Of a stretch of DNA of 64,000 bases, positions 18,856 to 38,533 are shown piece by piece. Each line of letters starts with the position of its first letter. Within the stretch, counting starts at the first letter, position 1. Source of the stretch: Patescibacteria group bacterium (GTDB lineage: Bacteria; Patescibacteriota; JABMPQ01; JAQVVF01); the NCBI GenBank assembly GCA_041662665.1, contig JBAZSC010000004.1:10464-74463 (forward strand), read 5' to 3'. The translations under genes were made by a program, and so were the position numbers. The notes below the pieces were generated by a model that saw nothing but the letters and a program-made list of their open reading frames with translations, was not told the DNA's origin and did no database searches.

Positions 18856-19056
18856 TTATAATTTTGTAATTTTAATACATTGCACTGGACATGCATCAGC
18901 AGCCTCTTGGTTACAACTAATTTCATCTACTTCTGGATTTTTTGGAAATGATTTATTATTTTCACCCTTTAATTCAAAATTTTCCGGACAAATTGTTGTG
19001 CAAGCACCACAGCTAATACATTTTTCTTGATCAATTTCGATTTTAAATTTCGCCAT
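18856..19056 (-). CDS. 4Fe-4S ferredoxin (single-cluster type)
   Basis: 66 aa with CISCGACTTICP plus CP C-terminal cysteines. Confidence 0.75.
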   Translation of the reverse strand: MAKFKIEIDQEKCISCGACTTICPENFELKGENNKSFPKNPEVDEISCNQEAADACPVQCIKITKL

Positions 19057-19075
19057 ATTTTTTTATTAAATAATA

Positions 19076-19101
19076 TAATACAAATATACAAATTTATGCA
19101 A
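19076..19101 (-). promoter_or_regulatory. Conserved promoter-like block (TTGCATAAATTYGTATATTTGTATTA) upstream of ferredoxin
   Basis: The reverse complement matches the block upstream of hsp20 and ruvB and lies 19 nt from the ATG. Confidence 0.45.
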
Positions 19102-19185
19102 ATGATACAAATTGCGAATACGTCGATTCGTAATTCGCAACATTCGTATTATTCGTATTCGCATTCGTATTATATTTTATGTTTT

Positions 19186-20355
19186 TTAAAAAGACAATTG
19201 CTTTAATTTCTCTAGCACCACTTTTTCCACATCCAACAAACTAATATTATCAAAATCAACTAAAATTAAGCCGTTCACTTTCTTACCCATAAAAATATCT
19301 CTGATTTTTTCTTTTGCTGAATCTTTATTGGTTTTGAAAATTGCTTTAACTCGTCCTTGCTGAAATTCATAAAAAATTATCACAATTTCTGCTAAATTCA
19401 CTGACATTGAAATTTCTTCTTCAACTCCCAAAATATCATTTTCTTCCTTTGATCCAGTCTTTTCAAAATCTTGATAATTAACTAATGTCCAAGCAATCTT
19501 TTTCGCATCATCAAATTTTACTCGAGCCAAAGCTCTGCCCCATAATTTCAAAGTTGATAATGATTTATTCTTAAAAATTGATTTAATAATTTTTTGCTGA
19601 TCTGCACCAAGCGCAATTAATTGCGCTGCAATTGTAAAAGATCTTGGTGTTGTTGTTGATGTTTGAAAACTCTTTGTTGATGACACGATTCCTGTCAACA
19701 AACAATTTGCAATTTCCTCATCAACTATTTTTTCGCCAAAAGATTCTAACAAAGTATACACAACTTCGGAAGTTGAAGAAGCTGTTACATCAACTAAATT
19801 CACTTCTCCATATTGCTCATTTGATGAACTGCTATCAATATTTATAATTGGAGTTTCATAAAATAATTCTGTATTTTCTTCATATATTTTTCCAAGCTTT
19901 TCTAAATCTGGAACATCAATACAAATTATCAAATTATATTTAAAACCAGAAGGTTTTGTTATCACATTGCTTGCATCATAATTTCCTTTTTCTGGAGTAA
20001 TATAAATATTTAATTTATTTCCATCCTCATCAAAATCATAAGAAAATTGAGCGACTTTTGCTTTTGATGTGTCTAATGTAATCACAAAATTCTTAGAGCC
20101 ATCAATTGTTTTTCCTAATTTAGAAATATTAGGCAAAAATGATAATGTCGAAGATATCGGTGCAGAACAAACCATATCAACTTCATGTCCGCCCATTTTT
20201 TCCAAAACTAAACCCAAGGAAAGCAAACTTCCAATCGAATCTTCATCAAAATCGGCCTTTGTTACTAATAAAATATTCTTGCTCTTTTTTATTAATTCAA
20301 AAATCTGTTGCTTAGATGATAATTCCATAAAATTTAAAAAAATTACAATATACAA
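19186..20355 (-). CDS. DHH-family phosphoesterase-like protein (NrnA-like architecture with degenerate catalytic motifs)
   Basis: The NrnA-like N-terminal layout is present but DxD/DHH are replaced (DEDSIG; no DHH), and a DHHA1-like C-terminus follows. The first about 9 codons lie in the inverted repeat at 20344-20452, so the start is probably the downstream ATG near 20328. Confidence 0.45.
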   Translation of the reverse strand: MYIVIFLNFMELSSKQQIFELIKKSKNILLVTKADFDEDSIGSLLSLGLVLEKMGGHEVDMVCSAPISSTLSFLPNISKLGKTIDGSKNFVITLDTSKAKVAQFSYDFDEDGNKLNIYITPEKGNYDASNVITKPSGFKYNLIICIDVPDLEKLGKIYEENTELFYETPIINIDSSSSNEQYGEVNLVDVTASSTSEVVYTLLESFGEKIVDEEIANCLLTGIVSSTKSFQTSTTTPRSFTIAAQLIALGADQQKIIKSIFKNKSLSTLKLWGRALARVKFDDAKKIAWTLVNYQDFEKTGSKEENDILGVEEEISMSVNLAEIVIIFYEFQQGRVKAIFKTNKDSAKEKIRDIFMGKKVNGLILVDFDNISLLDVEKVVLEKLKQLSF

Positions 20356-22029: not shown

Positions 22030-24078
22030 TTATCTACCTATGGCATAATATCTTTCTGAAAAATCAAATGGAGAATTCAAATAAATCGTAAAAGTATTTT
22101 CTTTGTTATTTTGTCTGGCGTCTAAATCAGACCATTCTCTTAGTTCAACATCATATAATTTTAAATGCAAGTCGCTTTCTTTTAAGCCAGTCATTTTCTT
22201 TTTTAAAACTTTAAATTCTTTTTTAGTATAATAAAAAATCACTTTAATTTTAAAGCTATCAGACAATTGATTTAAATCAGTTGTTATCAACCAATTTTTT
22301 TTCAACAACATATTTTCTGCATTAACATAAGTTATTGGATATTTTTTAAATCTTTGCACTTGCCAATAATAATTATATTTTTTAAGACTCTTAGAATATT
22401 TCTTAAAAACAAAATCAAAATCATTAGCAAAATAATTATGGTTTTTTCCTTTAATCTTGACTGTTTTATCGTTTGCTTTCTTAGTTACAAATTTAGCTTT
22501 TTTAATTACATACTTTTTACTGACAACAGAAGATTGATTGCCAGCATTATCAATTGCCATAAATTTCAAAGTCATGTCTTTGGAAACAACAATTTTCTTG
22601 CTGTAAACATCGGAAGTTGTTTTTGGCTTCTTGCCATTAGTTGTATAATAAATTTTATCCACGCCAGAAAGAGCATCAGTTGCTGACAAAGCAACTTTTT
22701 TAATATTTTTATAAGTGCCTTTTTTTACTGATGCCAAAACTTCTGGAGCTGTCGCATCATAAACAATGCTGGCTGACACTGCTGCTGTTTCTGCATACCA
22801 AGTATCTCGAAATTTTGCATAAACAGTTTTTGTCCCCTCGCTAGCTGATAAAGTAAAAGACTGCGAAGTTCCATATGTCGTCCATGCTGATCCAAAAGAA
22901 CTGCTGTTTTCTGTTGTTGCCATTTCTAATGTATCGCTTGAAGAAGACAAACCAAGCGTTAAACTTGAAGAATTAGTGTAAGTTGCTCCAGAATTAATTA
23001 TTAATGCTGCTAAAGACGGACCAGGAGTATAGGTATAAACCAAACCAGTAGCAATATCATAATTACACACTTGCGACCGATTATTAGAATCAACATCAAT
23101 AGAAGTATAATAGCCAGAACTAGAAGCACCTATAGTATATGTCGCCCAAGAGCCAGACACATTAGTCGCATATTTCAAACCATTGCCAGAATAAGTAATT
23201 CTAACTTTATCATTAGAATCAATTGCCAAAGAATTATTTGATCCCACAGTGCCAGAACTGTCTAAAATTTGTACTGTCCCCCAAAAGCTGGGCCTACCAG
23301 TAATATACTTCAAATCATAACTTACATTATCAAAATAACAAATATGAACATTATCGCCGGAATCAACGCCAAGATCCATATGCGTAGAAGTATAGTCACC
23401 CATATCAACATCATCCAAAGTTTCTCTCACCCAACTCCCAGAAGAATTTGTTACAAATCGCAGATGATTATTAGTATCATCATAATAACTTATCTGCGGA
23501 TAGTTATTGGAATCTAACTCAATTGCTGTATATTTTCCCATATCAGTACTTGTATCATCAACCACTTCTGTGCTCCAAGAACCATAATGGCCTTTGGCAT
23601 ATTTCAAATCTTGTCCTGTTGAATAATAATAAGAAATATGCGCTTCGCTGTCAGATCCAACCGCAATTGAAGTGTACCTGCCTACAACACCAGTTGCATC
23701 TACCTGTTCCGTCTGCCATGATCCAGAAACATTAGTTGCATATTTCAAAGAAGTATTATCTGTATCATAATAACTGATATGCGCTTTATTATTAGAATCC
23801 AATGCTAATGAAGAATATCTACCAACATCGGGACCGCCAAAACCATCTACTATCTCGCTTGTCCAAGAACCAGTTAAATTATTGACATATACCAAATCTT
23901 CATCACCTATAGCATAATAACAAATATGAATTTTATCATTCGTATCAACTTTTAATTCAGTGTCTGTAATATTTGCTAATATCGTAATTGTACTCGCTGA
24001 CCAGTCAGCCGCTTTTACATTTTGCCCAACAAAAATTACACTAATTAAAATTAAAAATAACCACAAAATTTTTCGCAT
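22030..24078 (-). CDS. Secreted repeat protein, paralog 1 of 6: signal peptide, YATN-type propeller-like repeats, chitobiase-C-like module and lysine-rich C-terminal domain ending YYAIGR
   Basis: Signal peptide MRKILWLFLILISVIFVGQNVKAADW; repeats of about 46 aa (SLALDSNNKAHISYYD.TN..LKYATNVSGSW); a KIYYTTNGKKP...KFMAIDNAGN module; lysine-rich tail. Confidence 0.8.
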   Translation of the reverse strand: MRKILWLFLILISVIFVGQNVKAADWSASTITILANITDTELKVDTNDKIHICYYAIGDEDLVYVNNLTGSWTSEIVDGFGGPDVGRYSSLALDSNNKAHISYYDTDNTSLKYATNVSGSWQTEQVDATGVVGRYTSIAVGSDSEAHISYYYSTGQDLKYAKGHYGSWSTEVVDDTSTDMGKYTAIELDSNNYPQISYYDDTNNHLRFVTNSSGSWVRETLDDVDMGDYTSTHMDLGVDSGDNVHICYFDNVSYDLKYITGRPSFWGTVQILDSSGTVGSNNSLAIDSNDKVRITYSGNGLKYATNVSGSWATYTIGASSSGYYTSIDVDSNNRSQVCNYDIATGLVYTYTPGPSLAALIINSGATYTNSSSLTLGLSSSSDTLEMATTENSSSFGSAWTTYGTSQSFTLSASEGTKTVYAKFRDTWYAETAAVSASIVYDATAPEVLASVKKGTYKNIKKVALSATDALSGVDKIYYTTNGKKPKTTSDVYSKKIVVSKDMTLKFMAIDNAGNQSSVVSKKYVIKKAKFVTKKANDKTVKIKGKNHNYFANDFDFVFKKYSKSLKKYNYYWQVQRFKKYPITYVNAENMLLKKNWLITTDLNQLSDSFKIKVIFYYTKKEFKVLKKKMTGLKESDLHLKLYDVELREWSDLDARQNNKENTFTIYLNSPFDFSERYYAIGR

Positions 24079-24152
24079 ACTTTTTTATTAATTAGTAGTG
24101 ATATTCCTGCCTGATAACAGTCAGGTATAACAAAATTTGCGTAAATTCACAA

Positions 24153-26000
24153 TTATCTTCCGATTGCATAATATCTTTCCGAATAATTAAATGGCGAACT
24201 TAAATAAATCATAAAAGTATTTTTTTTAGTATTCGGCTTGACTTGCAAATCCGCCCATTCTCTTGATTCAGAATTATATAATTTTAGATAAAGATTTTTC
24301 TCTTTCAAACCTTTTACCTTTTTCTTTAAAGCCTTAAATTCTTTATTAGTATAAGAAAATACTAATTTTAATTTTACTGGTTTGCTAGAATTATATTTTT
24401 GATAATCAGTTTTAATTTTCCAATATTTCTTTATCAAATTATGCTTTGCGTCAACAAAAAGTTTCGTATACTTTTTTTGCCTCTCAACCAAAAAATATCT
24501 TTTTGTCTTTTTAAAACTTTTTGGAAATTTTTTGAAAGTCAAATTTAATTCTCTTGCATAATATTTTTTATTTTTTTTCTTGATTTTAACTTCATTCTTT
24601 TTCTTGGATTTTTTTGTTGTAAATTTTGGATTGCCAACATATTTAACAATTTGTGAAACAACATCTGATTCAGCATGCCAAGCATCTCTATATTTTACAT
24701 AAACAGTTTTCTTGCCTTTTTTTGCTGGCATTTTAAATGTCTTATCAGCCAAATAACTTTGCCAAGTTTTGTTTGAAAAATCAGATTTTGTTGACACAAT
24801 CATTTCGACCGGACTTTCAGTCAAAGAAGATGTAATATGAATTTTTCTATAAGCAGAATATTTACGTCCATAATTTATTTCTGTTATTTGATTTGAAGGA
24901 CCAGGAGTATTAGCAAGTTTTAATTTCTCGCTTGTCTGATCATAATATGCGATATAGGCTCTGTTTTTTGAATCCACATCCAAAGATGGATAACCAACAA
25001 CATCGCTGTCATTCAAAGTATTTTTTACAAAAGAATCAGTTACATTGCTCATATAGCCTATCCAATTTCCTCCTCCAACTGTTCCGCCATAATAACTTAA
25101 ACGAACCTTATTATCAGAATCTAAAGCTAAAGAATTATTAAATGCTGTAAAATCAGGCAAGATTTCACTATCCATATCGCTTATCGTCCAATTACTGTCT
25201 GCCGTTGTTTTAGTCGCATATTTAAGCGTCGTATTAGGATTAGCTAAATACAAATAAGCCAAATGTGCTGTATTATTGCTATCAAACTTCAAAGAATTAA
25301 AATAACCAGTTCTATAAGTACTATCAATCGCGCTCAATACCCAACTGCCGGAAACATTAGTCGCATATTTCAAATAATCATTTGTCCCTTCAAAATAAGC
25401 AATATGAACTTTATTATTAGAATCAATAGCCAGAGAATTAAACGTTCCACTATTATCAACCGTATCCAAAGTCTCATAAACCCAATCACCAGTAACATTA
25501 GTCGCATATTTCAAATGATCATTAGTACCATCATAATAAGCAATATGCGCCTTATTATTTGAATCCAAGGCTAAAGACGGATATGAACCAGCTTCAATTG
25601 TCGGATCTAAAATTGTTACTTGCCAAGAACCAGAAGCATTAGTCGCATACCGCAATTGATCTTCAATCATAGCATAATAAGCCAAATAAAAATTATTATT
25701 AGAATCAACTGCCGAAGAAATAAATAATCCTGCATAAAGAGTATCATCAACAGTCTGTTGCTCCCAAGCCCCAGAAGCATTTGTAGCATACTTTATTTTA
25801 TGATCAGTATTATCAAAATAACCAATATAAATCTTATCATTACTGCCAACTTTTAAAGAAACAACAGCCGCACCTTCTGACACCATTGGCACGTTTCCCA
25901 TATCAGCCACATCGCTAAAAACCCAATCAGCAGCCTTAACATTTTGGCCAAAAATAAACAAAGTAAAAACAACAATCAAAATTAACAATCCTTTTTTCAT
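24153..26000 (-). CDS. Secreted repeat protein, paralog 2 of 6
   Basis: Same architecture: signal peptide, 7 repeats, beta module after the TPGPS linker, and a lysine-rich C-terminal domain ending RYYAIGR. Confidence 0.8.
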   Translation of the reverse strand: MKKGLLILIVVFTLFIFGQNVKAADWVFSDVADMGNVPMVSEGAAVVSLKVGSNDKIYIGYFDNTDHKIKYATNASGAWEQQTVDDTLYAGLFISSAVDSNNNFYLAYYAMIEDQLRYATNASGSWQVTILDPTIEAGSYPSLALDSNNKAHIAYYDGTNDHLKYATNVTGDWVYETLDTVDNSGTFNSLAIDSNNKVHIAYFEGTNDYLKYATNVSGSWVLSAIDSTYRTGYFNSLKFDSNNTAHLAYLYLANPNTTLKYATKTTADSNWTISDMDSEILPDFTAFNNSLALDSDNKVRLSYYGGTVGGGNWIGYMSNVTDSFVKNTLNDSDVVGYPSLDVDSKNRAYIAYYDQTSEKLKLANTPGPSNQITEINYGRKYSAYRKIHITSSLTESPVEMIVSTKSDFSNKTWQSYLADKTFKMPAKKGKKTVYVKYRDAWHAESDVVSQIVKYVGNPKFTTKKSKKKNEVKIKKKNKKYYARELNLTFKKFPKSFKKTKRYFLVERQKKYTKLFVDAKHNLIKKYWKIKTDYQKYNSSKPVKLKLVFSYTNKEFKALKKKVKGLKEKNLYLKLYNSESREWADLQVKPNTKKNTFMIYLSSPFNYSERYYAIGR

Positions 26001-26050
26001 TATTTTATTTTAATTAACTTTTAACTTTAGATTTTAGACTTTTAACTCAC

Positions 26051-27895
26051 CTATCTGCCGATAGCATAATATCTTTCCGAATAATTAAATGGCGAATTTA
26101 GATAAATAATAAAAGTATGATTAGTTGTATCAGGTTTAACTTGTAAATCAGCCCAACTATCAGATTCAGAAACATAATATTTCAGATGCAAATTCTTTTC
26201 TTTTAATCCTTTAACTTTCTTTTTCAAAACTTTGAATTCATCGCTAGTATACTGAAATACTAATTTTAATCTAACTTGCTTGCTTCCTGTATATTTATTA
26301 AAGTCAGTATTTACTTTCCAATATTTTTTTAACAAATTGTGCTTTGCATCTGCAAAAAGTTTTGTGTATTTTAATTGTCTTTCAATTAGAAAATATCGCT
26401 TTGTATTTTTGAATTTAGTTGGATATTTTTTGAATTTAAGCTTTAGATCTCTTGCGTAATAAGTTTTATTCTTTTCTTTAACTTTCACTTCATTAGATTT
26501 CCTTGCTTTTTTTGTTACAAACTTTATTGGATTGCCAGTATATTTTACTTCTTGAGAAACAACATTAGATTCAGCATGCCAAATATCTCTGAATTTCATA
26601 TAAACAGTATTTTCACCTTTTTCTGATGGCATTCTAAATGTTGTATCAGCTGAATATGTTTTCCAAGTTTTATCTGAAAAATCAGATTTTGTTGAAACGA
26701 TCATTTCTGTTGGAGTTCCTGCAACTGTTGATTTTATATTAATATTTCTTGTTGCTGAATAATTTCTACCATTATTTATTTCAGAAGAAGTGATACTTGG
26801 ACCAGGAGTGAAAGCATAATTCAAATCATTATCAGTAGTATTATAATATGAAATATGAATACGATTATTTGAATCTACGTCAAGTGAAATTTGATTATAG
26901 TATCCAAATAATACCACTATGTATGATCCAACATTATCAATCACATTATATGTCCATGACCCTGAAGTATTAGTTGCATACTTTAATTGTTGCTCAGTAA
27001 CATCATAATAACCAATATGTACACCATTATTGTTATCAACAGCTATCGAAGTATTATATCCTGCTTGATTTGCCGTATCCAAATTCGTTGCAACCCAAAC
27101 ACCAGTAGAATTAGTAATGTATTTCAAATCTAAATTTGTAGCATCTAAATAACTAATATGGATGCTATTGTTAGTCCCAATCGCCAAAGAAGAATACCAT
27201 CCAGCCTCAACTGAATTATCTAAAGTACTTGTTGACCAAACACCAGACAAACTATTCGTCGCATATTTTAGAGTACTATTAGTTTCATCACGATAACTAA
27301 TATGCGCAAACCCATTTGAATCAATACCAAGCGAATTAAAAATGCCCACATCACCAACTGAATCAACTGTTGTCAACACCCAAGAACCGGTTGCATTAGT
27401 TGCATATTTTAAATCACTATTAGTTGAATCATAATAGCTAATTTGAACCGCATTATTTGCATTCAATACTATTGATGTATTATTTATATCAAAAATACCT
27501 ACTGTAATAGTACCTGAATTATCAACAGTTGTAGCAACCCAAGAACCAGAAGCATTTGTGGCATATTTCAAATTACTATTAGTATCATCAATATAACTAA
27601 TATGAGATTTGTTATTACTATCAATTGCTATTGAAACACCTTCGCCTACGTTTCCTGCACTATCTACAGTTGTAATAGCCCACGAACCTGACTCATTTGT
27701 TATATATTTCAAATCATTAGTACCAACTTCAAAATAAGCAATATGCACAAAGCCATTATGATCAACAGCAATCGCATTATCAGCGCCAGTATTTACAGCA
27801 TCGATTGAAGATTTCTGCCAATCCGCAGCCTTCACATTTTGGCCAAAGATAAACAAACCAACAATGGCCAGACAAATTAATAAATACTTCCGCAT
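26051..27895 (-). CDS. Secreted repeat protein, paralog 3 of 6
   Basis: Same architecture; ends RYYAIGR. Confidence 0.8.
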   Translation of the reverse strand: MRKYLLICLAIVGLFIFGQNVKAADWQKSSIDAVNTGADNAIAVDHNGFVHIAYFEVGTNDLKYITNESGSWAITTVDSAGNVGEGVSIAIDSNNKSHISYIDDTNSNLKYATNASGSWVATTVDNSGTITVGIFDINNTSIVLNANNAVQISYYDSTNSDLKYATNATGSWVLTTVDSVGDVGIFNSLGIDSNGFAHISYRDETNSTLKYATNSLSGVWSTSTLDNSVEAGWYSSLAIGTNNSIHISYLDATNLDLKYITNSTGVWVATNLDTANQAGYNTSIAVDNNNGVHIGYYDVTEQQLKYATNTSGSWTYNVIDNVGSYIVVLFGYYNQISLDVDSNNRIHISYYNTTDNDLNYAFTPGPSITSSEINNGRNYSATRNINIKSTVAGTPTEMIVSTKSDFSDKTWKTYSADTTFRMPSEKGENTVYMKFRDIWHAESNVVSQEVKYTGNPIKFVTKKARKSNEVKVKEKNKTYYARDLKLKFKKYPTKFKNTKRYFLIERQLKYTKLFADAKHNLLKKYWKVNTDFNKYTGSKQVRLKLVFQYTSDEFKVLKKKVKGLKEKNLHLKYYVSESDSWADLQVKPDTTNHTFIIYLNSPFNYSERYYAIGR

Positions 27896-27951
27896 AATTT
27901 TTTTGTTTTAAATTTTTAAATTTCTGAAACTAAATTTATATAAATTATATA

Positions 27952-29802
27952 TTATTTACCAATTGCATAATATCTTTGCGAAAAATTAAACGGAGATTTC
28001 AAATAAACCGTAAAAGTATTTTTCTTTGTATTGCGTTTAGCTGACAAATTAGTCCACTTTTTTGATTTCAAATTATATGCTTTTAGATATAAATTCTTTT
28101 CTTTCAACCCTTTTACTTTTTTCTTTAATTTTTTAAATTCTTTTTTAGAATATGAAAATACTAATTTTAATTTAACATTCTTACTTAATTTATATTTTGA
28201 AAAATCAGTATTAATTTTCCAATATTTTTTTAACAAATTATGCTTTGCATCCACAAAAAGTTTTGTAAATTTCTTTTTTCTCACAACCAAAAAATATCTT
28301 TTTGTTTTTTTAAAAGCTTTTGGATATTTTTTGAAAGTCAAATTTAATTCTCTAGCATAATATTTTTTATTTTTCTTTTTAATCCTTACTTCATTTTTTT
28401 TCTTCGCTTTTTTTGTAACAAACTTTGGATTACCGACATATTTGACATTAAAAGATACAACAGCAGATTCAGCACTATAGACATCTCTAAATTTAACGTA
28501 AATTGTTTTTATGCCTTTTTTTGAAGGCATTTTAAAAATCGTATTAGCCAAATAACTGCTCCAAATCTTATTAGAAAAATCAGACTTTGTCGAAACAATC
28601 ATTTCAGTAGGACTGCCAGAAACTGAAGATGCAATATTAATTTTTCTATAAGCTGAATAATCCCTTCCATTATTTATTGTTATTGTTTGAACTGAAGGTC
28701 CAGGAGTATAAGTATAATTCAAACTAGTATTAACTAAACCAGCACTAGTTTTAAAATAAATAACATGTGTTCGATTCATTGAATCTATTCCTAACGATAT
28801 TGGACGATAATATGCATTAAAAGTTTCAAAAGAAAACAAAAGACTGTACGATCCAGTATCCTGTTGATTATAAATTGACCATTGTCCAGAAACATTTGTC
28901 GCGTATTTTAATCTGCCATTTAAAATATCATGATAAGCAACATGCAATTTATTATTATCATCAATTTTTAATGAAGGATAATAGCCCACTTGACCTGCAC
29001 TGTCATTATCAATAACACTTGCAACCCATGCTCCTGAAATATTAGTAATATATTTTAAATCAGAGTTAGTATAATCCAAATAAGCAATATGAATTTTATT
29101 ATTTGAATCAATCGCTATGGAAGACTGAAGACCTACCGATCCATTAGAATCTAAAACTACAGATAGCCAAGAACCACTATCATTAGTAATATATTTTAAA
29201 TCGGAATTAGTAGTATCACGATAAGAAATATGCACCTTATTATTTGAATCCAATGCCAAAGAAGAACTACCTCCAACATCAGTACTAGAATCTATTGTTT
29301 CATTTGCCCATGAACCAGACACGTTTGTCGCATATTTCAAATTGCTATTATCTGAATCATAATAGCTTACATATATTTTTTTATTTCCATCCAAAGCCAT
29401 TGATACTTGTCCCAAGCCAATAGTTCCACTATTATCAATTATCTCGAAAACCCATGTTCCATTAACATTATTCGCATATTTTAACCAATCATTCGTTCTA
29501 TCTTCATAAACAATATATACTTTTCCATTAACATCTATTCCCAAAGAAGAATTACCAACATTAACAGAGTTATCAACAATTTCTGCCATCCAAGTACCAG
29601 AAGAATTAGTCGCATATTTCAAATCAGAATTAGTATTATCAAAATAACTAATATGAACTTTGTTATTTTGATCAATTGCTAATGCATTAACACTTCCAGC
29701 AGATGCCTCCAATTCCTGCGACTGCCAATCAGCAGCCAAAACATTTTGGCCAAACAGAAACAGACCAACAATGGCCAGACAAATTAATAAATACCTCCGC
29801 AT
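27952..29802 (-). CDS. Secreted repeat protein, paralog 4 of 6
   Basis: Same architecture; the 7 repeats are counted explicitly; ends RYYAIGK. Confidence 0.8.
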   Translation of the reverse strand: MRRYLLICLAIVGLFLFGQNVLAADWQSQELEASAGSVNALAIDQNNKVHISYFDNTNSDLKYATNSSGTWMAEIVDNSVNVGNSSLGIDVNGKVYIVYEDRTNDWLKYANNVNGTWVFEIIDNSGTIGLGQVSMALDGNKKIYVSYYDSDNSNLKYATNVSGSWANETIDSSTDVGGSSSLALDSNNKVHISYRDTTNSDLKYITNDSGSWLSVVLDSNGSVGLQSSIAIDSNNKIHIAYLDYTNSDLKYITNISGAWVASVIDNDSAGQVGYYPSLKIDDNNKLHVAYHDILNGRLKYATNVSGQWSIYNQQDTGSYSLLFSFETFNAYYRPISLGIDSMNRTHVIYFKTSAGLVNTSLNYTYTPGPSVQTITINNGRDYSAYRKINIASSVSGSPTEMIVSTKSDFSNKIWSSYLANTIFKMPSKKGIKTIYVKFRDVYSAESAVVSFNVKYVGNPKFVTKKAKKKNEVRIKKKNKKYYARELNLTFKKYPKAFKKTKRYFLVVRKKKFTKLFVDAKHNLLKKYWKINTDFSKYKLSKNVKLKLVFSYSKKEFKKLKKKVKGLKEKNLYLKAYNLKSKKWTNLSAKRNTKKNTFTVYLKSPFNFSQRYYAIGK

Positions 29803-29874
29803 AATTTTTTTGTTTTTATTCCACCAAAGTTCCGCAGAACGTAGGTGGATTAATTTTTAAAAACTTAAAATAAA

Positions 29875-31686
29875 CTATTTTATTCCAATCCCAAAAGTCC
29901 TTTTGCTAAAAGAAATTGGAGAATCAATTATTAAAGTAAAAGTTCTCTTTTTTAAATTTAAAGTTGCAAATGAATTTTTCCACTTTTTCTTTAATTTATT
30001 GTAATATAATAATTTCAAATCACTTTGTTTTAATGTCTTATTATTCTTTTTTAATTTTTTGAATTCTTTTTTAGAATAATTAAAAGTCACTTTTAATCTG
30101 AAATTATTCTTGGCTTTTTTATAAGTATATTTATTTAAATCATCTGTCACTAGCCAATATTTTTTTAATAGCTTATTTTTGTCTATTTTCTTAAAATAGT
30201 TACTGAATAATTTTGATTGAACAAAATATTTTTCTTTTTTTAAATTTTTTGGATATTTTGTCATTACAAAATTCAAATCTCTCGCAGAATAAACCTTGCC
30301 TTGCTTTTTCAACAAAACTTCATTAACTTTTCTAGCCTTTTTTGTTACAAATTTTGGATTTTTAATGTATCTAATTGTCTTTGTTAAAGCACCTGATTCA
30401 GCAAACCATTGATCTCTGAAATTGACATAAACTGTTTTTGTTCCATCAACTTTTGATAAAGTAAAAATCTTTGATGTATCATAAGCTTCCCAATTTGCAT
30501 TTGCAAAATCAGCATTTTCAGAAATTATCATTTCAGTTGGACTGCCTGCTGAAGATAAAGACAATGCTACTGTTCTTAAGGCAGTATATGCTTTATTAGA
30601 ATTAATCTTTAAACTTGTATTTGTTGGTCCCATAGAAGCAGCGTATTTTAAATCGCCATTTGTATGATCCTGATAAGCAATATGAATTCTATTTAGATCA
30701 TCAACCTTAATTGAAGTTTGAAAACCTAAAATTAAAGTATCGCTTCCTTGATCAACAATATATTTCTGAAAGGTTCCTGAAATATTTGTCGCATATTTCA
30801 AAGAATAATTTGGATAACCATCATGATAACTAATATGAGCATAATTATTTTTATCCAAGCTCAAACTAGAAAACATTCCAGTCAATCCTCCTGCTAAAAC
30901 TGCAGTATCAATTGTTGTTTTCTGCCAACTTCCAGATAAATTTGTAATATATTTCAAAGCTTGCACTCCGCCATCATAATAGCTAACATGCACTTTATTA
31001 TTTGTATCAACAGCAATTGAAGAATATTGTCCAACTCCTCCATTATCAATTGCTGAGCTTAAAAAAGATCCTGATTCATTTGTTGCGTATTTTAACCATT
31101 GATTACTGCTATCATAATAGCTAATATGAGCTTTGCCATTTGAATCAACTGCAATTGATGTATTGCTTGTAGAAGATAATGTTTCTACATCGTAGAAAAA
31201 CCAAGTTCCAGATGACTTGATTGCATATCTAACTTTTGATCCATTATAATAGCTAATATTCAATCGATCACTTGAATCAATCGCCATATCCACAAAAGTC
31301 CCGCCCAAAGCATCTAAAACAGAATTTCCCCAATTTCCTCCAGCATTTGTGGCATATTTCAAATCATCATTTACAGCATCATAATAAGCAATATGAATTT
31401 TGTTCGCTGAATCAACCACTAAAGAAGGATAAAGCCCAACCATTACTGAACTCTCGTCAATTATCGTAATTTGAAAACTGCCAGAACTATTAGTCGCATA
31501 TTTTAATTTACCATCACCAAGATATGCAATATGAACATATCCTAACGAATCAACACTAATTGATGTTCCATCTCCAGCAAAACCAGTTGCATCAACTGTT
31601 GTTTTTTGCCAATCTGCTGCCAACACAGTATGACCAAACAACATCAGGCAAAACATTGCCACCAAAATTAATAATTTCTTTTTCAT
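29875..31686 (-). CDS. Secreted repeat protein, paralog 5 of 6 (more divergent)
   Basis: Signal peptide, LKYATN repeats, beta module and a lysine-rich tail ending FGIGIK. Confidence 0.75.
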   Translation of the reverse strand: MKKKLLILVAMFCLMLFGHTVLAADWQKTTVDATGFAGDGTSISVDSLGYVHIAYLGDGKLKYATNSSGSFQITIIDESSVMVGLYPSLVVDSANKIHIAYYDAVNDDLKYATNAGGNWGNSVLDALGGTFVDMAIDSSDRLNISYYNGSKVRYAIKSSGTWFFYDVETLSSTSNTSIAVDSNGKAHISYYDSSNQWLKYATNESGSFLSSAIDNGGVGQYSSIAVDTNNKVHVSYYDGGVQALKYITNLSGSWQKTTIDTAVLAGGLTGMFSSLSLDKNNYAHISYHDGYPNYSLKYATNISGTFQKYIVDQGSDTLILGFQTSIKVDDLNRIHIAYQDHTNGDLKYAASMGPTNTSLKINSNKAYTALRTVALSLSSAGSPTEMIISENADFANANWEAYDTSKIFTLSKVDGTKTVYVNFRDQWFAESGALTKTIRYIKNPKFVTKKARKVNEVLLKKQGKVYSARDLNFVMTKYPKNLKKEKYFVQSKLFSNYFKKIDKNKLLKKYWLVTDDLNKYTYKKAKNNFRLKVTFNYSKKEFKKLKKNNKTLKQSDLKLLYYNKLKKKWKNSFATLNLKKRTFTLIIDSPISFSKRTFGIGIK

Positions 31687-31763
31687 GATTTTCCCTCGTC
31701 CGCCATGCTTCTTCGCTTAAGCGAAGAGCGAAGGCGGATATTAAATAGTAATTATTTTAAAAT

Positions 31764-33614
31764 TTATTTTTTTCCTATTGCATAATAAATTTCATTCCAA
31801 GATATCGGCGAAATCAAAGTGATAGCAAATGTCCTATTTTTCACAGAATGTACGGCATTTAAATTATGCCATTTCTTTTCTTTAACATTATAATATTTTA
31901 AAACCAAACTACTTTCTGACAAACCTTTATTTCTATTTTTTAAAGTCTTGAATTGCTTTTTTGTATATTTAAAAACAAATTTAGTTTTAAAATTATCAGC
32001 TAATTTATATTTATTAAAATTACCTTTTATTTTCCAATATTCTTTAATCAAATTTTTCTTGGCTGCAATATAAGTTTTTGAATATTTTCTATATCTTTTT
32101 ACTTGCCAAGAATATTTTGCTTTTTTCAAACCTTTTGGCAATTTCAAAAATTTTAAATAAAATTTTTGAGCAGTATATTTTTTATTTTTCTTTTTTATTA
32201 AAATTTCTTTGCTTTTTGCATTTTTTGTTACAAAAGTTGGATTTGGCAAATATTTAATTGAATCAGAAACAGTTGCTGATTCCGCATACCATTGATCTCG
32301 AAATTTTACATAAATAGTCTTTTTGCCAACCCTAGAAGACATTTCAAAAACTTTATTCACATTATATGTTTCCCATTCTGCTCCAGCAAAAGTAGAATAT
32401 TCAGACAACATCATTTCTGTTGGATTGCTAGTTGCAGATAAAACCAAATCAACATCTTTAAAATTTGTATATTTTTTACCTGCTTCTATTACAACTTCTG
32501 GACTTATTGGACCAAGTACATCAGCAAATTTTACTTCACCATCCCAAGGAGAATAAGTATGCAGATAAAATAGACCAACGTAAAGTCTGTTTGAAGAATC
32601 CATAGCCAAAGAAATTGGCTGTTCAGCTGTATGAATTGCATCTCCAATATCACTAACAGCTACAGTTGAAAAACTTGTCCCAACATTATTTGCCAGCTTA
32701 AAATCAAAGTTATCCACATCATAATATCCAATTCTTACTCTTGAATTGCTATCAACTACTAGAGAAGAATATATTCCAACATCTCCAGCAGTATCAACTG
32801 TCGAATTTGACCAATAGCCCAACATATTATTTGCGTATTTCAAATCTCGATTCCCGCGATCATAATAACTAATATGAACGAAATCACTATCGTCAATTTT
32901 TATTGAACTAAACTCACCAACATTACCGCTATCAACGGTTTGAGCCACAAAATTTCCAGAAGAATTTGTAATATATTTTAAAGATAGATTTGCCGAATCA
33001 TAATAACTGATATGGACTTTATTGTAATCATCAACAGTTAATGAAGAAAATAGTCCGACAAAAGTACTACTGCTATCTATTGTTGATAATGTAAAACCAG
33101 TTCCATTAGAATTTGTTGCGTATTTTAAATCGTCATTTGTTAAATCATAATAACTAATATGCACATAACCTAATGAATCAACACCAATCGAATCATACAT
33201 ACCAACTTCGCCTGTTGTATCAATTGATGATGCTGCCCACACTCCAGAAGCATTAGTCGCATATTTCAAATCAGAATTAGCATAATCATAATAACTAACA
33301 TGCGCCTTATCATTATAATCTATTGCAATTGATGGATACTGTCCCAAACCAGAACCAAGATCAATTGTTTCACTCACAAAACTGCCAGATGCGTTTGTTG
33401 CATATTTTAGATAATAAGTTGCACCAGTTGTCTCTAAATAAACCAGATGCGCTTTGCTATTTGAATCCAAAGCAATTGCCACAATAGGACCAACACCTAC
33501 TCCTCTCGACAATGACTCAAATTGCCAATCCGATGCCTTTGCTTGACCAAAAAAACAAAAGACACAAGACAACGTTGCAAAAACCACTCCTAAAATTAGA
33601 GATTTTTTTCTCAT
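31764..33614 (-). CDS. Secreted repeat protein, paralog 6 of 6 (more divergent)
   Basis: Signal peptide, LKYATN repeats and a lysine-rich tail ending YYAIGKK. Confidence 0.75.
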   Translation of the reverse strand: MRKKSLILGVVFATLSCVFCFFGQAKASDWQFESLSRGVGVGPIVAIALDSNSKAHLVYLETTGATYYLKYATNASGSFVSETIDLGSGLGQYPSIAIDYNDKAHVSYYDYANSDLKYATNASGVWAASSIDTTGEVGMYDSIGVDSLGYVHISYYDLTNDDLKYATNSNGTGFTLSTIDSSSTFVGLFSSLTVDDYNKVHISYYDSANLSLKYITNSSGNFVAQTVDSGNVGEFSSIKIDDSDFVHISYYDRGNRDLKYANNMLGYWSNSTVDTAGDVGIYSSLVVDSNSRVRIGYYDVDNFDFKLANNVGTSFSTVAVSDIGDAIHTAEQPISLAMDSSNRLYVGLFYLHTYSPWDGEVKFADVLGPISPEVVIEAGKKYTNFKDVDLVLSATSNPTEMMLSEYSTFAGAEWETYNVNKVFEMSSRVGKKTIYVKFRDQWYAESATVSDSIKYLPNPTFVTKNAKSKEILIKKKNKKYTAQKFYLKFLKLPKGLKKAKYSWQVKRYRKYSKTYIAAKKNLIKEYWKIKGNFNKYKLADNFKTKFVFKYTKKQFKTLKNRNKGLSESSLVLKYYNVKEKKWHNLNAVHSVKNRTFAITLISPISWNEIYYAIGKK

Positions 33615-33796
33615 TATTTTTGTTTTTTATTTTAATAAATTTTAATTACTGATATCTTAACATTTTTTTACCTATTTAACAAAAAAGCTATCCACTGCCA
33701 AAATTTACATTATGCCAATAATAATGTATAATAAAATTAATCAAATATCATTTTTAAAAACAGAATTAAAATTAGAAAAAGTATTTGCATTATTTG

Positions 33797-33836
33797 CATA
33801 TTCGCAATATTTGCATAAATTCGTATATTTGTATTA
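33797..33836 (+). promoter_or_regulatory. Conserved about 40-nt promoter-like block ending at the hsp20 start codon (candidate leaderless promoter: TTCGCA-17-TATATT)
   Basis: catattcgcaatatttgcataaattcgtatatttgtatta is near-identical (1 mismatch) to the block upstream of ruvB and is related to the block upstream of ferredoxin. Confidence 0.5.
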
Positions 33837-34393
33837 TGCCTAAACAATCTTTTTTCGCAAGATTTTTACAATCAAAACAAGTTGCTGACAATCCTACGCC
33901 GCCAAAACCACCAGTTGGACATCTGCCAACTCCAAAGACTTCTCAGCCAGATCCAGCTCCAATCCAAGTTCAACAGCAACAACAACCACAACCTCAACAA
34001 AATTCTTCTCAATCTTCACAAGATAGTCAAGAAAATTACGAAGGCCAGCTTGCTATTGATGTTTATCAAACTCCTCAAGAAATAGTTATTAAATCAACAA
34101 TTGCTGGTGTTAATCCAGAAAACATTGACATCAATATCGATAATGACATGGTTACAATCAAAGGCGAAAGAAAAAATATCACTGAAGCAAAAGAAAATGA
34201 TTATTATTATCAAGAATGTTATTGGGGCTCTTTTTCAAGATCAATTATCTTGCCAGAAGAAGTCGTTGCTGATAATGCTGTTGCTGAATTAAAAAATGGA
34301 ATTCTGACAGTCAGATTACCAAAAGCAAATGCCGTTAAAACCAAAAAAATAGAAGTCAAAATGGCGAGCGATACAGTGACTAGTAATCAATAA
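33836..34393 (+). CDS. Hsp20/alpha-crystallin family small heat-shock protein with a Q/P-rich N-terminal extension
   Basis: Alpha-crystallin domain (LAIDVYQT...VTIKGER...AELKNGILTVRLPK). The start is assigned to the ATG at 33836 (MPKQSFF). Confidence 0.85.
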   Translation: MPKQSFFARFLQSKQVADNPTPPKPPVGHLPTPKTSQPDPAPIQVQQQQQPQPQQNSSQSSQDSQENYEGQLAIDVYQTPQEIVIKSTIAGVNPENIDINIDNDMVTIKGERKNITEAKENDYYYQECYWGSFSRSIILPEEVVADNAVAELKNGILTVRLPKANAVKTKKIEVKMASDTVTSNQ

Positions 34394-35333: not shown

Positions 35334-37073
35334 ATGCCTAAAAAAATATTTAAAACTTTTTTTATAATTTCAATCATTTTCTTAACCACGTTAAGCCTTT
35401 CTTTAATTGTCTTAAATTTTTATTACAAAGATAAATTTTATCCAGGTACAACAATTGCTAATTTTAATGTTTCTGGAAAAACAAAACAACAAGCAACTGA
35501 TTTTTTAAATAATAAATTAGAAGAATTTAATCAAGGAATTAGTTTTGTTAATAAAGATTATAACCAAAAAATAAAACCAGAACTTTTTGGCGTTGAAATT
35601 GATTTAGAAAAAACAATCAATCAAGCTTTTGATAAAACAAATTCTGGAAGCAAACATAATCGAAGTTTCAATATCATTAAAACTTTAATTTTAAAAGATC
35701 ATAATAATTTAATTTATTCGATCCAATCAAATAAATTAGAAAATTTTTACAATCAAGAATTATCCAAATTAGACCAGCAAAAAAAAGAGACCAACATCTC
35801 TTTTCAAAAAAATAATTTAAAAATAATTTCTGGAAATTCGGGCTTTTCTTTAAACAAGCAATTTTTAACAAGCTTAATAAATTCCAGAATTAAAAATTTA
35901 TCAGCTGACGAAATAAATGTTCCATTTCAAAAAATCAATCCTGAAAATAATAAAAAAATAATTTTTAAAACAAGTCTTGAAGCCAAAAATATTGTTTCAC
36001 AAAAAATTATTTTGCAATACGAAAAAGATAAGTGGATAATTGACCAAGATACGTTAAAATCCTGGGCTAATTTTGCTGTTCAAAAAACACCAATTACTAG
36101 TTATCCAAGTCTAAATAAAAATTATCCAGTACAAAATCTAATTTATAATTCTTTATCAACTAAACAAAAAAATAATTTTCAAGATCAACTAGTTGCCTAT
36201 TTTGACCGACAAAAAATCGGCGATTATTTATCAAAAGAAATTGCGCCAAAAATCAATCAAGCTCCTCAAAATATCCGCTTGCAAATGCAAAATAATGAAT
36301 TAACAATTTTTCAGCCTGCCAAAAAAGGCAAAGAATTATTAATCGAAGGCAATCTAAAAAATATTATTGATAATATCAAAAATCAAAATACCAAAATTAA
36401 ATTATTAACCAAATCTTTAGGCGCTGAAATTAACAAAAAAAATATCAAAGAACTTGGCATCAAAGAATTATTAGGCAAAGGCGAATCAAATTTTTCTGGA
36501 AGTCCTACCAATCGCATTCAAAATATTACTGTTGCCGCCCAAAAACTGAATGGTATTTTAGTAAAACCAAATGAAGAATATTCTTTAGTTAATAATTTAG
36601 GCGAGGTCAATGCTGAAGCAGGATACCTGCCAGAATTAGTTATTAAAGAAGACAAAACCATCCCAGAATATGGAGGAGGTTTATGCCAAATCGCCACCAC
36701 TAATTTTCGTGCTGCGCTAAATTCAGCCTTACCAATCACCGAACGCCAATCGCATTCTTATGCAGTCCAATATTATGATCCGCAAGGAACAGATGCTGCA
36801 ATTTACATTCCTCATCCAGATCTAAAATTTTATAACAATACTAAAAATTATATTTTAATTCAGACATCAATCTTTAATGATATTTTAACTTTTGAATTTT
36901 ATGGAACTAATGATGGCAGATCTGTCAGATTTGAGGGTCCAGAATATTGGGACCAAAAACCTGACAAATCATTCAAGGCAAAATATTCCCAAATTATTAC
37001 CTATCCCGACAAAACCGAAAAAAAATCAACCTTCTTTAGCTATTACGATAATCCTGATAAATACAAACACTAG
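35334..37073 (+). CDS. VanW-family protein with N-terminal TM anchor
   Basis: C-terminal VanW-like region (GGGLCQIATTNFRAALNS...YIPHPDLKF) and an N-terminal signal anchor. Confidence 0.6.
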   Translation: MPKKIFKTFFIISIIFLTTLSLSLIVLNFYYKDKFYPGTTIANFNVSGKTKQQATDFLNNKLEEFNQGISFVNKDYNQKIKPELFGVEIDLEKTINQAFDKTNSGSKHNRSFNIIKTLILKDHNNLIYSIQSNKLENFYNQELSKLDQQKKETNISFQKNNLKIISGNSGFSLNKQFLTSLINSRIKNLSADEINVPFQKINPENNKKIIFKTSLEAKNIVSQKIILQYEKDKWIIDQDTLKSWANFAVQKTPITSYPSLNKNYPVQNLIYNSLSTKQKNNFQDQLVAYFDRQKIGDYLSKEIAPKINQAPQNIRLQMQNNELTIFQPAKKGKELLIEGNLKNIIDNIKNQNTKIKLLTKSLGAEINKKNIKELGIKELLGKGESNFSGSPTNRIQNITVAAQKLNGILVKPNEEYSLVNNLGEVNAEAGYLPELVIKEDKTIPEYGGGLCQIATTNFRAALNSALPITERQSHSYAVQYYDPQGTDAAIYIPHPDLKFYNNTKNYILIQTSIFNDILTFEFYGTNDGRSVRFEGPEYWDQKPDKSFKAKYSQIITYPDKTEKKSTFFSYYDNPDKYKH

Positions 37074-37189
37074 ACAAGAATACAAATCTACAAATAACGC
37101 TAATCTACGAATATACGAATCGTCGTATTCGCATATTCGCTATATTGGCATTATTCGTATATTCGTATTTTACCCAACAAAAAACTGTA

Positions 37190-37330
37190 GGCTAATGTCC
37201 CGTGCTACCTTATGTGAACGCATATTTCACAGAAAATAGCGCGGGACGAAGTAACAATCCCAAGTGATTCAGTAGTAAAACACCGCCGAATCCTTTCTGA
37301 TTGTTCCTTATAAAATAGCTGCCTACAGAT
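37190..37330 (+). ncRNA. Candidate structured ncRNA (GC-rich nested-stem element in an AT-rich 436-nt intergenic region); strand uncertain
   Basis: Outer stem ctgtaggc (37194-37201) pairs with gcctacag (37319-37326). Inner stems include gtcccgtgc/gcgcgggac and tgtgaa/ttcaca. No match to the tRNA, tmRNA, SRP or RNase P signatures that I can recall. Confidence 0.25.
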
Positions 37331-37465
37331 TTTTGGCCACGAAAAACATTACTTTTTTTTCATGACTAAACAGCTTAGCATATTATATTTCGCCTGTCAA
37401 TACTTTTTGCTATAATATAATACGAATATGCAAATCTATGCAAATAATACGAATATACAAATTCG

Positions 37466-37505
37466 TATATTCGCAACATTTGCATAAATTCGTATATTTG
37501 TATTA
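37466..37505 (+). promoter_or_regulatory. Conserved about 40-nt promoter-like block upstream of ruvB
   Basis: gtatattcgcaacatttgcataaattcgtatatttgtatta ends 5 nt before the ATG at 37511. Confidence 0.5.
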
Positions 37506-37510
37506 CATAA

Positions 37511-38533
37511 ATGATAAAAAACACAACACCAAAAATCATCGCACCAGAAGAAAAATTAGAAGACAAAGCTCTTGATTTTACCTTAAGACCAAAAAAATTA
37601 GATGAATTTATTGGCCAAAACAAGCTAAAAGAAAACCTCAAGATCTTAATTCAAGCTGCAAACATGAGAAAAGAACAAATTGATCATTTGTTACTTTATG
37701 GCCCTCCTGGTACTGGAAAAACAACACTTGCCAACATTATTTCTTGTGAAACAAACGTCAATATCAGAGTCACTTCAGGACCAGCCTTAGAAAAAGCCGG
37801 AGATCTAGCTGCCATTTTAACAAACCTAAAAGATAATGATATTTTGTTTATTGATGAAATACACAGAATGAACAAAAACATTGAAGAAGTCCTTTATCCT
37901 GCCATGGAAGACTATTCTTTAGACATCGTTCTAGGCAAAGGTCCTTCTGCCAAAACAGTCAGATTAGATTTGCCAAAATTTACTCTTATCGGCGCAACTA
38001 CCAGAATTGGTTTATTATCATCACCTCTTCGCGATCGTTTTGGTGCAATTTATCATTTAGATTTTTATGAAGATCACGAATTAGAAAAAATTGTCACTAG
38101 ATCAGCCAATATTCTAAATATAAAAATTGAAGCTTCGGGTTCATCAGAAATCGCTAAAAGATCTAGAAAAACTCCTCGAATTGCCAACAGATTATTAAAA
38201 CGAGTTCGCGATTTTTCTCAAGTAAAATCAGATGGTACAATTACTCAAGCAACTGCTAAAAAAGCTTTAGATTTATTAGAGATTGATAGCTTAGGATTAG
38301 ATGCCGTTGACCGCAAAATTTTAATGACTATTATCCAAAAATTTAATGGCGGACCAGTAGGTATTAAAACAATTTCTCAATCAACTGCCGAAGAACAAGA
38401 TACATTAGAAGAAGTTGTTGAACCATTTTTATTGCAACTCGGTTTTATCAATCGTACAGCCAAAGGCCGAGAAACAACCAGTCTTGCTTATCAACATTTA
38501 GGCATTACTAACATCAAAGAATGGAAAAAATAG
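37511..38533 (+). CDS. ruvB: Holliday junction branch-migration helicase RuvB
   Basis: [11 protein letters not shown] Walker A, DEIHRMN Walker B and the RuvB C-terminal winged helix. Confidence 0.95.

Follow-up and report, generated by a model that had tools for sequence, protein, structure and literature searches.

The gene of a VanW/PG_binding_4 protein (35334-37073) and ruvB (37511-38533) border a gap of 437 nt (37074-37510) in the 64,000-nt stretch of Patescibacteria DNA that was analysed here as a whole, hereafter the window. The first-pass annotation had described this gap as free of any credible coding sequence, and no conserved ORF was found, the longest measuring 0-39 aa with no conservation of sequence, length or frame. 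Within the gap, the segment 37190-37330 has a GC content of 42.6-43.1%, compared with 31.4% for the whole window and 27.6% for the remainder of the gap, and an equal or higher GC content is reached in merely 3.3% of all 144-nt windows; the GC enrichment reported in that annotation therefore stands (42.6% vs 31.4%), the figure given there being about 45%. The stems that had been quoted are all present where they had been placed: the outer stem is formed by CTGTAGGC at 37185-37192 and GCCTACAG at 37321-37328, and the inner stems by GTCCCGTGC at 37197 with GCGCGGGAC at 37239 and by TGTGAA at 37213 with TTCACA at 37226, ACAGAAAAT being located at 37229. The 8-bp outer stem is extended by an A-run and a T-run (an A-run and a U-run in RNA; I17, 15-nt arms), and the predicted shape is a three-way junction in which a closing helix surrounds two hairpins. 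Minimum free energies (MFE) are -55.7 kcal/mol on the plus strand (z = -8.9) and -62.3 kcal/mol on the minus strand (z = -9.7), and on neither strand was any of 200 dinucleotide shuffles as stable. The element is single-copy in the 64-kb window searched.

Relatives of the locus, numbered here with the prefix L, were collected along two routes. The VanW-like protein as query retrieved 11 genome loci, all from metagenome-assembled genomes (MAGs) of Patescibacteria/CPR, and in the three closest of these (85, 77, and 59% identity) the VanW-element-ruvB synteny is kept and the element is present in 3/3. Further loci were obtained by taking RuvB relatives from the protein database and then looking up their contigs; orthologues were carried by L092, L093, L094/L095, and L096/L097 (RuvB 75-86% identical), by L099/L100, L102, and L103 (RuvB ~68% identical), by L104-L106 (RuvB 67% identical), and by L107 and L108. 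The total comes to 13 distinct orthologue sequences. On every contig that includes both flanking genes, the orthologue lies between ruvB and the VanW-like gene, and every fetched locus with both VanW and ruvB has the RNA. One locus, L012 (contig Ga0172379_10091825), is identical to the window. No member was detected by nhmmer and two covariance models in 79 (~80) metagenome loci with RuvB at <=67% identity, where the gene context of ruvB is different and often ruvA-ruvB, nor by nhmmer and the covariance models R1 and R2 in 8 distant VanW loci. Across ~0.5 Mb of loci, the covariance-model searches gave matches at the syntenic site alone. A weak match in L085 was rejected as falling inside a ruvA-like coding region, and pattern scans of viral contigs yielded two matches, both in a 1286-aa ORF and with nothing similar in the interval, which were put down to chance. 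As far as seen, the family would thus be restricted to one Patescibacteria (CPR) clade. In L092, ruvB is separated from the promoter region by an inserted PDDEXK_3 gene and the RNA gene is intact, an arrangement suggesting that the RNA gene is not tied to ruvB.

That PDDEXK_3-family gene (L092 1140-1565 plus flanks) is bordered by ATTCG-rich palindromic repeats, which suggests a small mobile cassette. Similar AT-rich palindromic repeats of ~80-95 nt, with the core ATTCG[CT]ATATTCGCAAYATTTGCATWA-ATTCGTATATTYGTATTA, form a dispersed family in the window, where copies lie at 19035-19180, 33770-33850, 37075-37175, and 37410-37512, 4/4 of them intergenic. The contexts of these copies are an HSP20 gene start, the ruvB leader, the stretch just past the small RNA proposed below, and the region downstream of a DHH-family gene (19186-20355, minus strand); the exact motif TACGAATAT is confined to the VanW-like–ruvB gap. 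As the repeats are missing at these places in L001 and L002, they resemble MITE/REP-like insertions. Elsewhere in the window, six tandem paralogous ORFs of 603-682 aa with mutual identities of 34-57% occupy 22030-33614 on the minus strand, and Pfam, applied to three of them, gave CHB_HEX_C_1 plus Fn3_assoc for one, a sub-threshold aRib for another, and no match for the third. This array probably encodes diversifying surface proteins.

The data allow the construction of a gene model that makes the GC-rich segment the folded core of a small-RNA (sRNA) gene in its own right, divergent from ruvB and convergent with the VanW-like gene; taken as a whole, and as a prediction from sequence, this explanation is in our judgement a likely one. 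The putative promoter lies on the minus strand and consists of a -35 hexamer TTGACA (37395-37400), preceded by the A-rich stretch GCAAAAAGTA, and an extended -10, TGC + TAAGCT (37372-37380). The hexamer is invariant in 13/13 distinct orthologues and always 17 nt from the -10, the TGn-TAnnnT pattern recurs in 13/13, and the composite TTGACA-N14-TGn-TAnnnT, with a 17-nt spacer ending in TGn, is accordingly kept in all 13, with free variation in the remaining spacer bases and variation at positions 3-5 of the -10. The -10 versions (TAAGCT, TAAGTT, TAAGAT, TACACT, TAGTAT, TAAACT, and TATTAT) agree with TATAAT at just 3-4/6 positions, and a simple consensus promoter scan did not list the sRNA promoter because TAAGCT agrees at only 3/6. 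By a rough estimate from base frequencies in AT-rich sequence, the chance of the promoter motif per 150-nt stretch is ~0.002 per locus.

With the start set 7 nt past the -10 and the end placed at the U-tract after the closing helix, the whole transcript is predicted to span ~188 nt (37178-37365, minus strand; MFE -72.0 kcal/mol). We infer from these motifs that the RNA is made and where exactly its two ends fall. Predicted lengths among the orthologues range from 129 to 234 nt. The extent of 37190-37330 given in the first-pass annotation was thus too short, since the gene adds the promoter (37372-37400), a 5' hairpin (37338-37364), and a U-tract reaching down to 37178. All parts are read on the minus strand. 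The 5'-terminal hairpin, CAUGAAAAA...UUUUUCGUG, begins at about +2 and is found at the same position, with differing sequences, in 7/7 orthologues of the window type; it holds U·G pairs whose plus-strand equivalent, read from the alignment, would be C·A. The 5' strand of the closing helix follows (CAAAAAU + CUGUAGGC, 37321-37335), and then an unpaired, U-rich junction strand, AGCUAUUUUAU (37310-37320), which is conserved at 11 nt in the window type and measures 3-4 nt in the short types. Hairpin A, AAGGAACAAUC...GGGAUUGUUACUU (37249-37309), forms a conserved arm whose 3' strand is almost invariant and whose 5' strand shifts from A-U to G·U and from C-G to U-A. Hairpin B (37197-37247), containing the gtcccgtgc/gcgcgggac and tgtgaa/ttcaca stems, is the variable arm. 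The 3' strand of the closing helix, GCCUACAG, then leads into UUUUUU(G) (37178-37192), the probable 3' end. The U6 directly past the closing helix is seen in the window type, L104, and L108, and is invariant in 7/7 window-type sequences. In L099, L102, and L103, a separate canonical hairpin+U6 terminator stands on the minus strand 15-25 nt further on, with stems unrelated to one another (GCGAGC/GUUCGC, AAUGAGC/GCUCAUU, and ACAGGAC/GUCCUGU). The predicted gene therefore presents what characterizes a stand-alone bacterial sRNA gene, namely a conserved promoter and terminator of its own, a covarying structure, and a defined strand.

Back-to-back with the sRNA promoter region, and overlapping it, lies a divergent ruvB promoter on the plus strand with the extended -10 TGCTATAAT (37408-37416), and TGnTATAAT is present at the same place in L001, L002, L003, L092, and L094. 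The ruvB -35 would fall at ~37388-37393, the sRNA -35 being at 37395-37400. As the two promoters overlap (37388-37421), occupancy of either could limit the other, and they might compete for RNA polymerase, a suggestion drawn from their positions only. In the L099-type relatives, the plus-strand side has its own TTGACA instead.

Whereas the first-pass annotation had read the element as plus-strand, the evidence favours an RNA encoded on the minus strand. Read in that direction, the helix cells of an unfitted alignment contain 41 G·U against 5 A·C pairs, an excess that means that many pairs would break on the plus strand, and changes from A-U to G·U keep pairing only on the minus strand, as where ACAAUC/GAUUGU becomes GCGAUU/GAUUGU in L003. 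The comparison of folding on both strands covered four sequences, and the minus strand was the more stable in 4/4: -65.7 vs -59.3 kcal/mol in the window, -68.0 vs -57.5 in L001, -80.7 vs -64.9 in L002, and -37.0 vs -15.9 in L003. The covariance models discriminate likewise, R1 scoring the window at 181 bits on the minus strand vs 22 bits on the plus strand and R2 scoring L103 at 95 vs 43 bits. Strand was thus one respect in which the proposal of a candidate ncRNA had to be amended, along with its extent and its RNase P trace; its core, a structured, conserved, and covarying element, was borne out, and the comparative alignment of the homologous intergenic region that it had called for found both conservation and covariation in relatives.

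Three alignments bear on the covariation, all of few and closely related sequences. In A2 (MAFFT, 7 window-type sequences; structure from the MFE fold of the window), 93.9% of cells are paired vs 38-53% with partners slid; 4 pairs are changed on both sides, a number reached by 234/500 shuffles, many changes being one-sided G·U. In A4 (9 sequences), which is fitted to a covariance model and leans towards it, 96.7% are paired, with 15 double-sided pairs vs 1-9 in slid controls and 0/500 shuffles reaching this. In A5 (unfitted MAFFT, 6 short-type sequences; structure from an MFE-derived rod), 89.5% are paired vs 43-58% slid, and 15 double-sided pairs stand against 3-7 in slid controls, with 0/500 shuffles reaching 15; both sides are changed in 6/12 pairs of the closing-helix extension and in 3/8 pairs of the inner closing helix. 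Because the tested structures come from one member per alignment, they are favoured over the slid controls. Pairing in helices 2 and 3 amounts to 96-97% in A4 and 90-97% in A2. The 8-bp part of the outer stem does not vary in the window and L099 types and contains G·U in L108, and CUGUAGGC/GCCUACAG is wholly replaced by CUCAAGACAA/UUGUCUUGAG in L104 and L107. In the types other than that of the window, the 5' region lengthens the closing helix to ~25 bp rather than forming a hairpin, with compensatory changes such as UCCUACC/GGGCGGGA in L104 vs UUCUGCC/GGGCAGAA in L107.

The architecture itself varies among the subtypes. The window type is a three-way junction and the L099, L104, L107, and L108 types are rods, the homology between the two forms being only partly resolved. 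Hairpin B has an unrelated stem sequence in L002, L092, and L093, where it is still fully paired, and is shrunk to 4-5 bp in L094 and L003; an extra hairpin is present in L104, and L107 is without it. Every subtype has one strand rich in purines (AAGGAAC, AAGGAAG, or GAGAAGG) and one rich in pyrimidines (GUUACUU or CUUUCUU). In L099, L102, and L103 (for example L099 2806-2897, minus strand), CUUUCUU can pair either with the 5' AAGGAAG or with the inner AAGAC.AGC in mutually exclusive folds, and in L104 AUCC/GGAU can form either a local hairpin or a part of the rod. These alternatives may reflect a second conformation or mere ambiguity of the alignment.

Searches for known families gave little. 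At the gathering thresholds of Rfam 15, two tRNAs and nothing else were found in the whole window. At E<=10, the region 36900-37700 gave just spurious miRNA/snoRNA-type matches, nearly all on the flanking AT-rich palindromes, which cause the spurious miRNA matches; at E<=5, eight orthologous loci gave nothing relevant, again with miRNA/snoRNA-type matches on palindromes and on the element's hairpins. The Rfam scan that the first-pass annotation had proposed as a check thus matched no family, and its opinion that the element is not RNase P RNA, tmRNA, SRP RNA, or 6S RNA is upheld at these relaxed thresholds. RNase P RNA and tmRNA exceed 300 nt and are marked by a P4 helix or a tag ORF; both were rejected on the negative Rfam scans and a predicted RNA of 129-234 nt. 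The motif ACAGAAAAU, which had been singled out as an RNase-P-like trace, has no bearing on the question, as it sits in the variable hairpin B and is replaced or missing in relatives, and is therefore meaningless. 5S rRNA, considered on account of the three-way junction, was set aside because the length of one arm ranges from 12 to 60 nt and no Rfam 5S match was obtained. Retron msr/msd, omega/tracr-type guide RNAs, and Y RNA were likewise discarded, since none of the loci has a neighbouring gene for an RT, a nuclease, or Rsr. A riboswitch or cis leader was dismissed because no gene lies downstream on the minus strand, the VanW-like gene being convergent and turning only its 3' end towards the element. 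A full-text search of the literature found no description of ncRNAs specific to CPR/Patescibacteria. The RNA family is accordingly one without an Rfam entry or a description found in the literature; its kind, the orphan bacterial sRNA, is already known.

These observations permit a tentative model of how the gene may operate. The RNA would start at ~37365 from a strong sigma-70-type promoter composed of TTGACA, preceded by A-rich sequence, and TAnnnT, the 17 nt between the two hexamers ending in TGn. The RNA would begin with a protective 5' hairpin, and a long closing helix would join the 5' and 3' parts of its body; within this helix would lie a conserved arm, bearing the AAGGAA / CUU(U)CUU helix of every subtype, and one or more dispensable hairpins. 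Its end would be the U-tract at ~37178, certain relatives having a distinct intrinsic terminator instead. The promoter, which is close to consensus, TG-extended, and preceded by A-rich sequence, the ends buried in a hairpin and a terminal helix, and the compact covarying fold fit a strongly expressed, stable RNA; with no downstream gene in the orientation of the sRNA it should act in trans, and since the conserved nucleotides lie in helices, with no single-stranded seed common to all subtypes, protein binding is favoured over mRNA pairing. It is therefore conceivable, though we put it at somewhat below even chances, that the RNA is strongly expressed and stable and serves in trans as a protein-binding scaffold or sponge, the protein-binding role being a guess from anatomy. 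A more ambitious version, in which the RNA is a subunit or regulator of an undescribed lineage-specific ribonucleoprotein, or an unrecognisably diverged stand-in for a universal RNA such as 6S, appears doubtful; if true, it would account for the retention, at a constant location in so small a genome, of an RNA gene with a strong promoter and a constrained structure.

Other explanations share the gene model and differ in function. A trans-acting base-pairing sRNA would pair with mRNAs through CUUUCUU, which is anti-Shine-Dalgarno-like, or through the U-rich junction; the evidence for the gene fits it equally, CUUUCUU/GUUACUU is the one short motif retained in all subtypes, and a stand-alone gene with a terminator is typical of many bacterial sRNAs. 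However, the shared motif is paired in every predicted fold, and no single-stranded stretch is conserved throughout, the junction measuring 11 nt in the window type vs 3-4 nt in the others, so that we regard base pairing as unlikely. Considerably less probable is a housekeeping RNA that has diverged strongly, the most plausible candidate being an RNA-polymerase-binding RNA of the 6S kind; the closing helix would then stand for the closing stem of 6S, the junction for its central loop, and hairpin A for its terminal stem. The length of 129-234 nt, the long closing helix, the rod-like shape, and the very strong promoter would suit such an RNA, as would the 11-nt unpaired 5' strand opposite a dispensable hairpin in the window type, but there is no Rfam 15 6S match at E<=10 (locus) or E<=5 (eight orthologous loci), the MFE folds of the short types are without a large internal loop (the biggest is ~4 nt), and the fetched data place the family in a single clade.

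Further readings would do away with the minus-strand RNA. As a plus-strand cis element, the segment could belong to the VanW-like gene as its 3' UTR or terminator, or to ruvB as a leader or riboswitch; the succession of A-run, stem, and T-run does resemble a bidirectional terminator after the VanW-like gene, and the plus strand folds well too (z = -8.9). We consider this very improbable in view of the G·U to A·C ratio given above, of plus-strand MFEs that are much weaker in diverged orthologues, of the L099 type, which has no T-run after the stem on the plus strand, and of L092, in which another gene lies between the element and ruvB. The ruvB leader fails in addition because the conserved ruvB promoter (37408-37416) lies between the element and ruvB, leaving the element outside the ruvB mRNA, and a plain terminator is at odds with a 128-nt conserved interior, with the promoter that the element possesses, and with the additional terminator that some relatives carry. 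The least credible reading, to which we attach almost no weight, denies any RNA function and takes the element for a DNA palindrome (MITE/REP-like, or a protein-binding inverted repeat) or a transcriptional insulator. Long inverted repeats in the element, and the dispersed AT-rich palindromic family that flanks it on both sides within the gap, would speak in its favour. However, the element is single-copy in the 64-kb window, lies at the same syntenic position in all loci, and is equipped with a conserved promoter; the AT-rich repeats on either side form a sequence family of their own and are lacking in L001 and L002, its closest relatives. Moreover, compensatory changes together with G·U pairs indicate selection on a single strand. 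A MITE was rejected on the same single-copy, syntenic occurrence and strand-specific pairing, and a DNA cruciform linked to RuvB was rejected for the G·U bias. The minus-strand sRNA gene thus remains the preferred explanation.

The genomes of Patescibacteria (CPR) are very small, and most members of the group have yet to be cultured. The proposed sRNA offers a concrete, testable candidate for lineage-specific RNA biology in CPR, and its family yields a covariance model for annotating CPR MAGs as well as a clade marker. As one more orphan sRNA family of narrow range, it will be useful to the specialist without being surprising.

Several known systems invite comparison. 6S RNA (ssrS; RF00013 and related families) is characterized by a large single-stranded bubble that mimics an open promoter, binds sigma-70 holoenzyme, and templates product RNAs, and some 6S RNAs have a hairpin on the 3' side of the bubble. 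The family shares with it a stand-alone gene, a length of ~130-230 nt, a largely double-stranded form with the 5' and 3' ends in a closing stem, a terminal stem, and a strong promoter, and the window type also has an unpaired stretch between the stems. As to a central bubble, the window type has the 11-nt 5' junction strand opposite the variable hairpin, the predicted rod MFE folds of L107 and L108 have internal loops of <=4 nt, and the L099-type pairing is ambiguous. The family differs from 6S RNA in giving no covariance-model match (E<=10 in the window region; E<=5 in eight orthologous loci), in the extra 5' hairpin that the window type carries outside the closing stem, and in being known from one clade. 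Bacterial SRP RNA (4.5S; RF00169) is a rod of ~100-130 nt with a conserved apical region, as are the L099, L107, and L108 types. The signature of SRP domain IV is a GNAR tetraloop flanked by conserved symmetric and asymmetric loops with AGCA; the family differs in that Rfam gives no match and the apical sequences vary among subtypes, with no common GNAR tetraloop and AGCA by eye. An intrinsic bidirectional terminator would have in common a GC-containing stem, A-run and U-run flanks, and a position between convergent transcription units, but the "loop" is here 128 nt of conserved covarying structure, with its own promoter and, in relatives, a separate terminator. The family resembles in kind the orphan structured sRNA motifs recovered by comparative genomics (e.g., PMC5737381): although none of those deposited in Rfam matches, they share with the present family an intergenic location, GC enrichment, covariation, promoter and terminator signals, and a narrow phylogenetic range.
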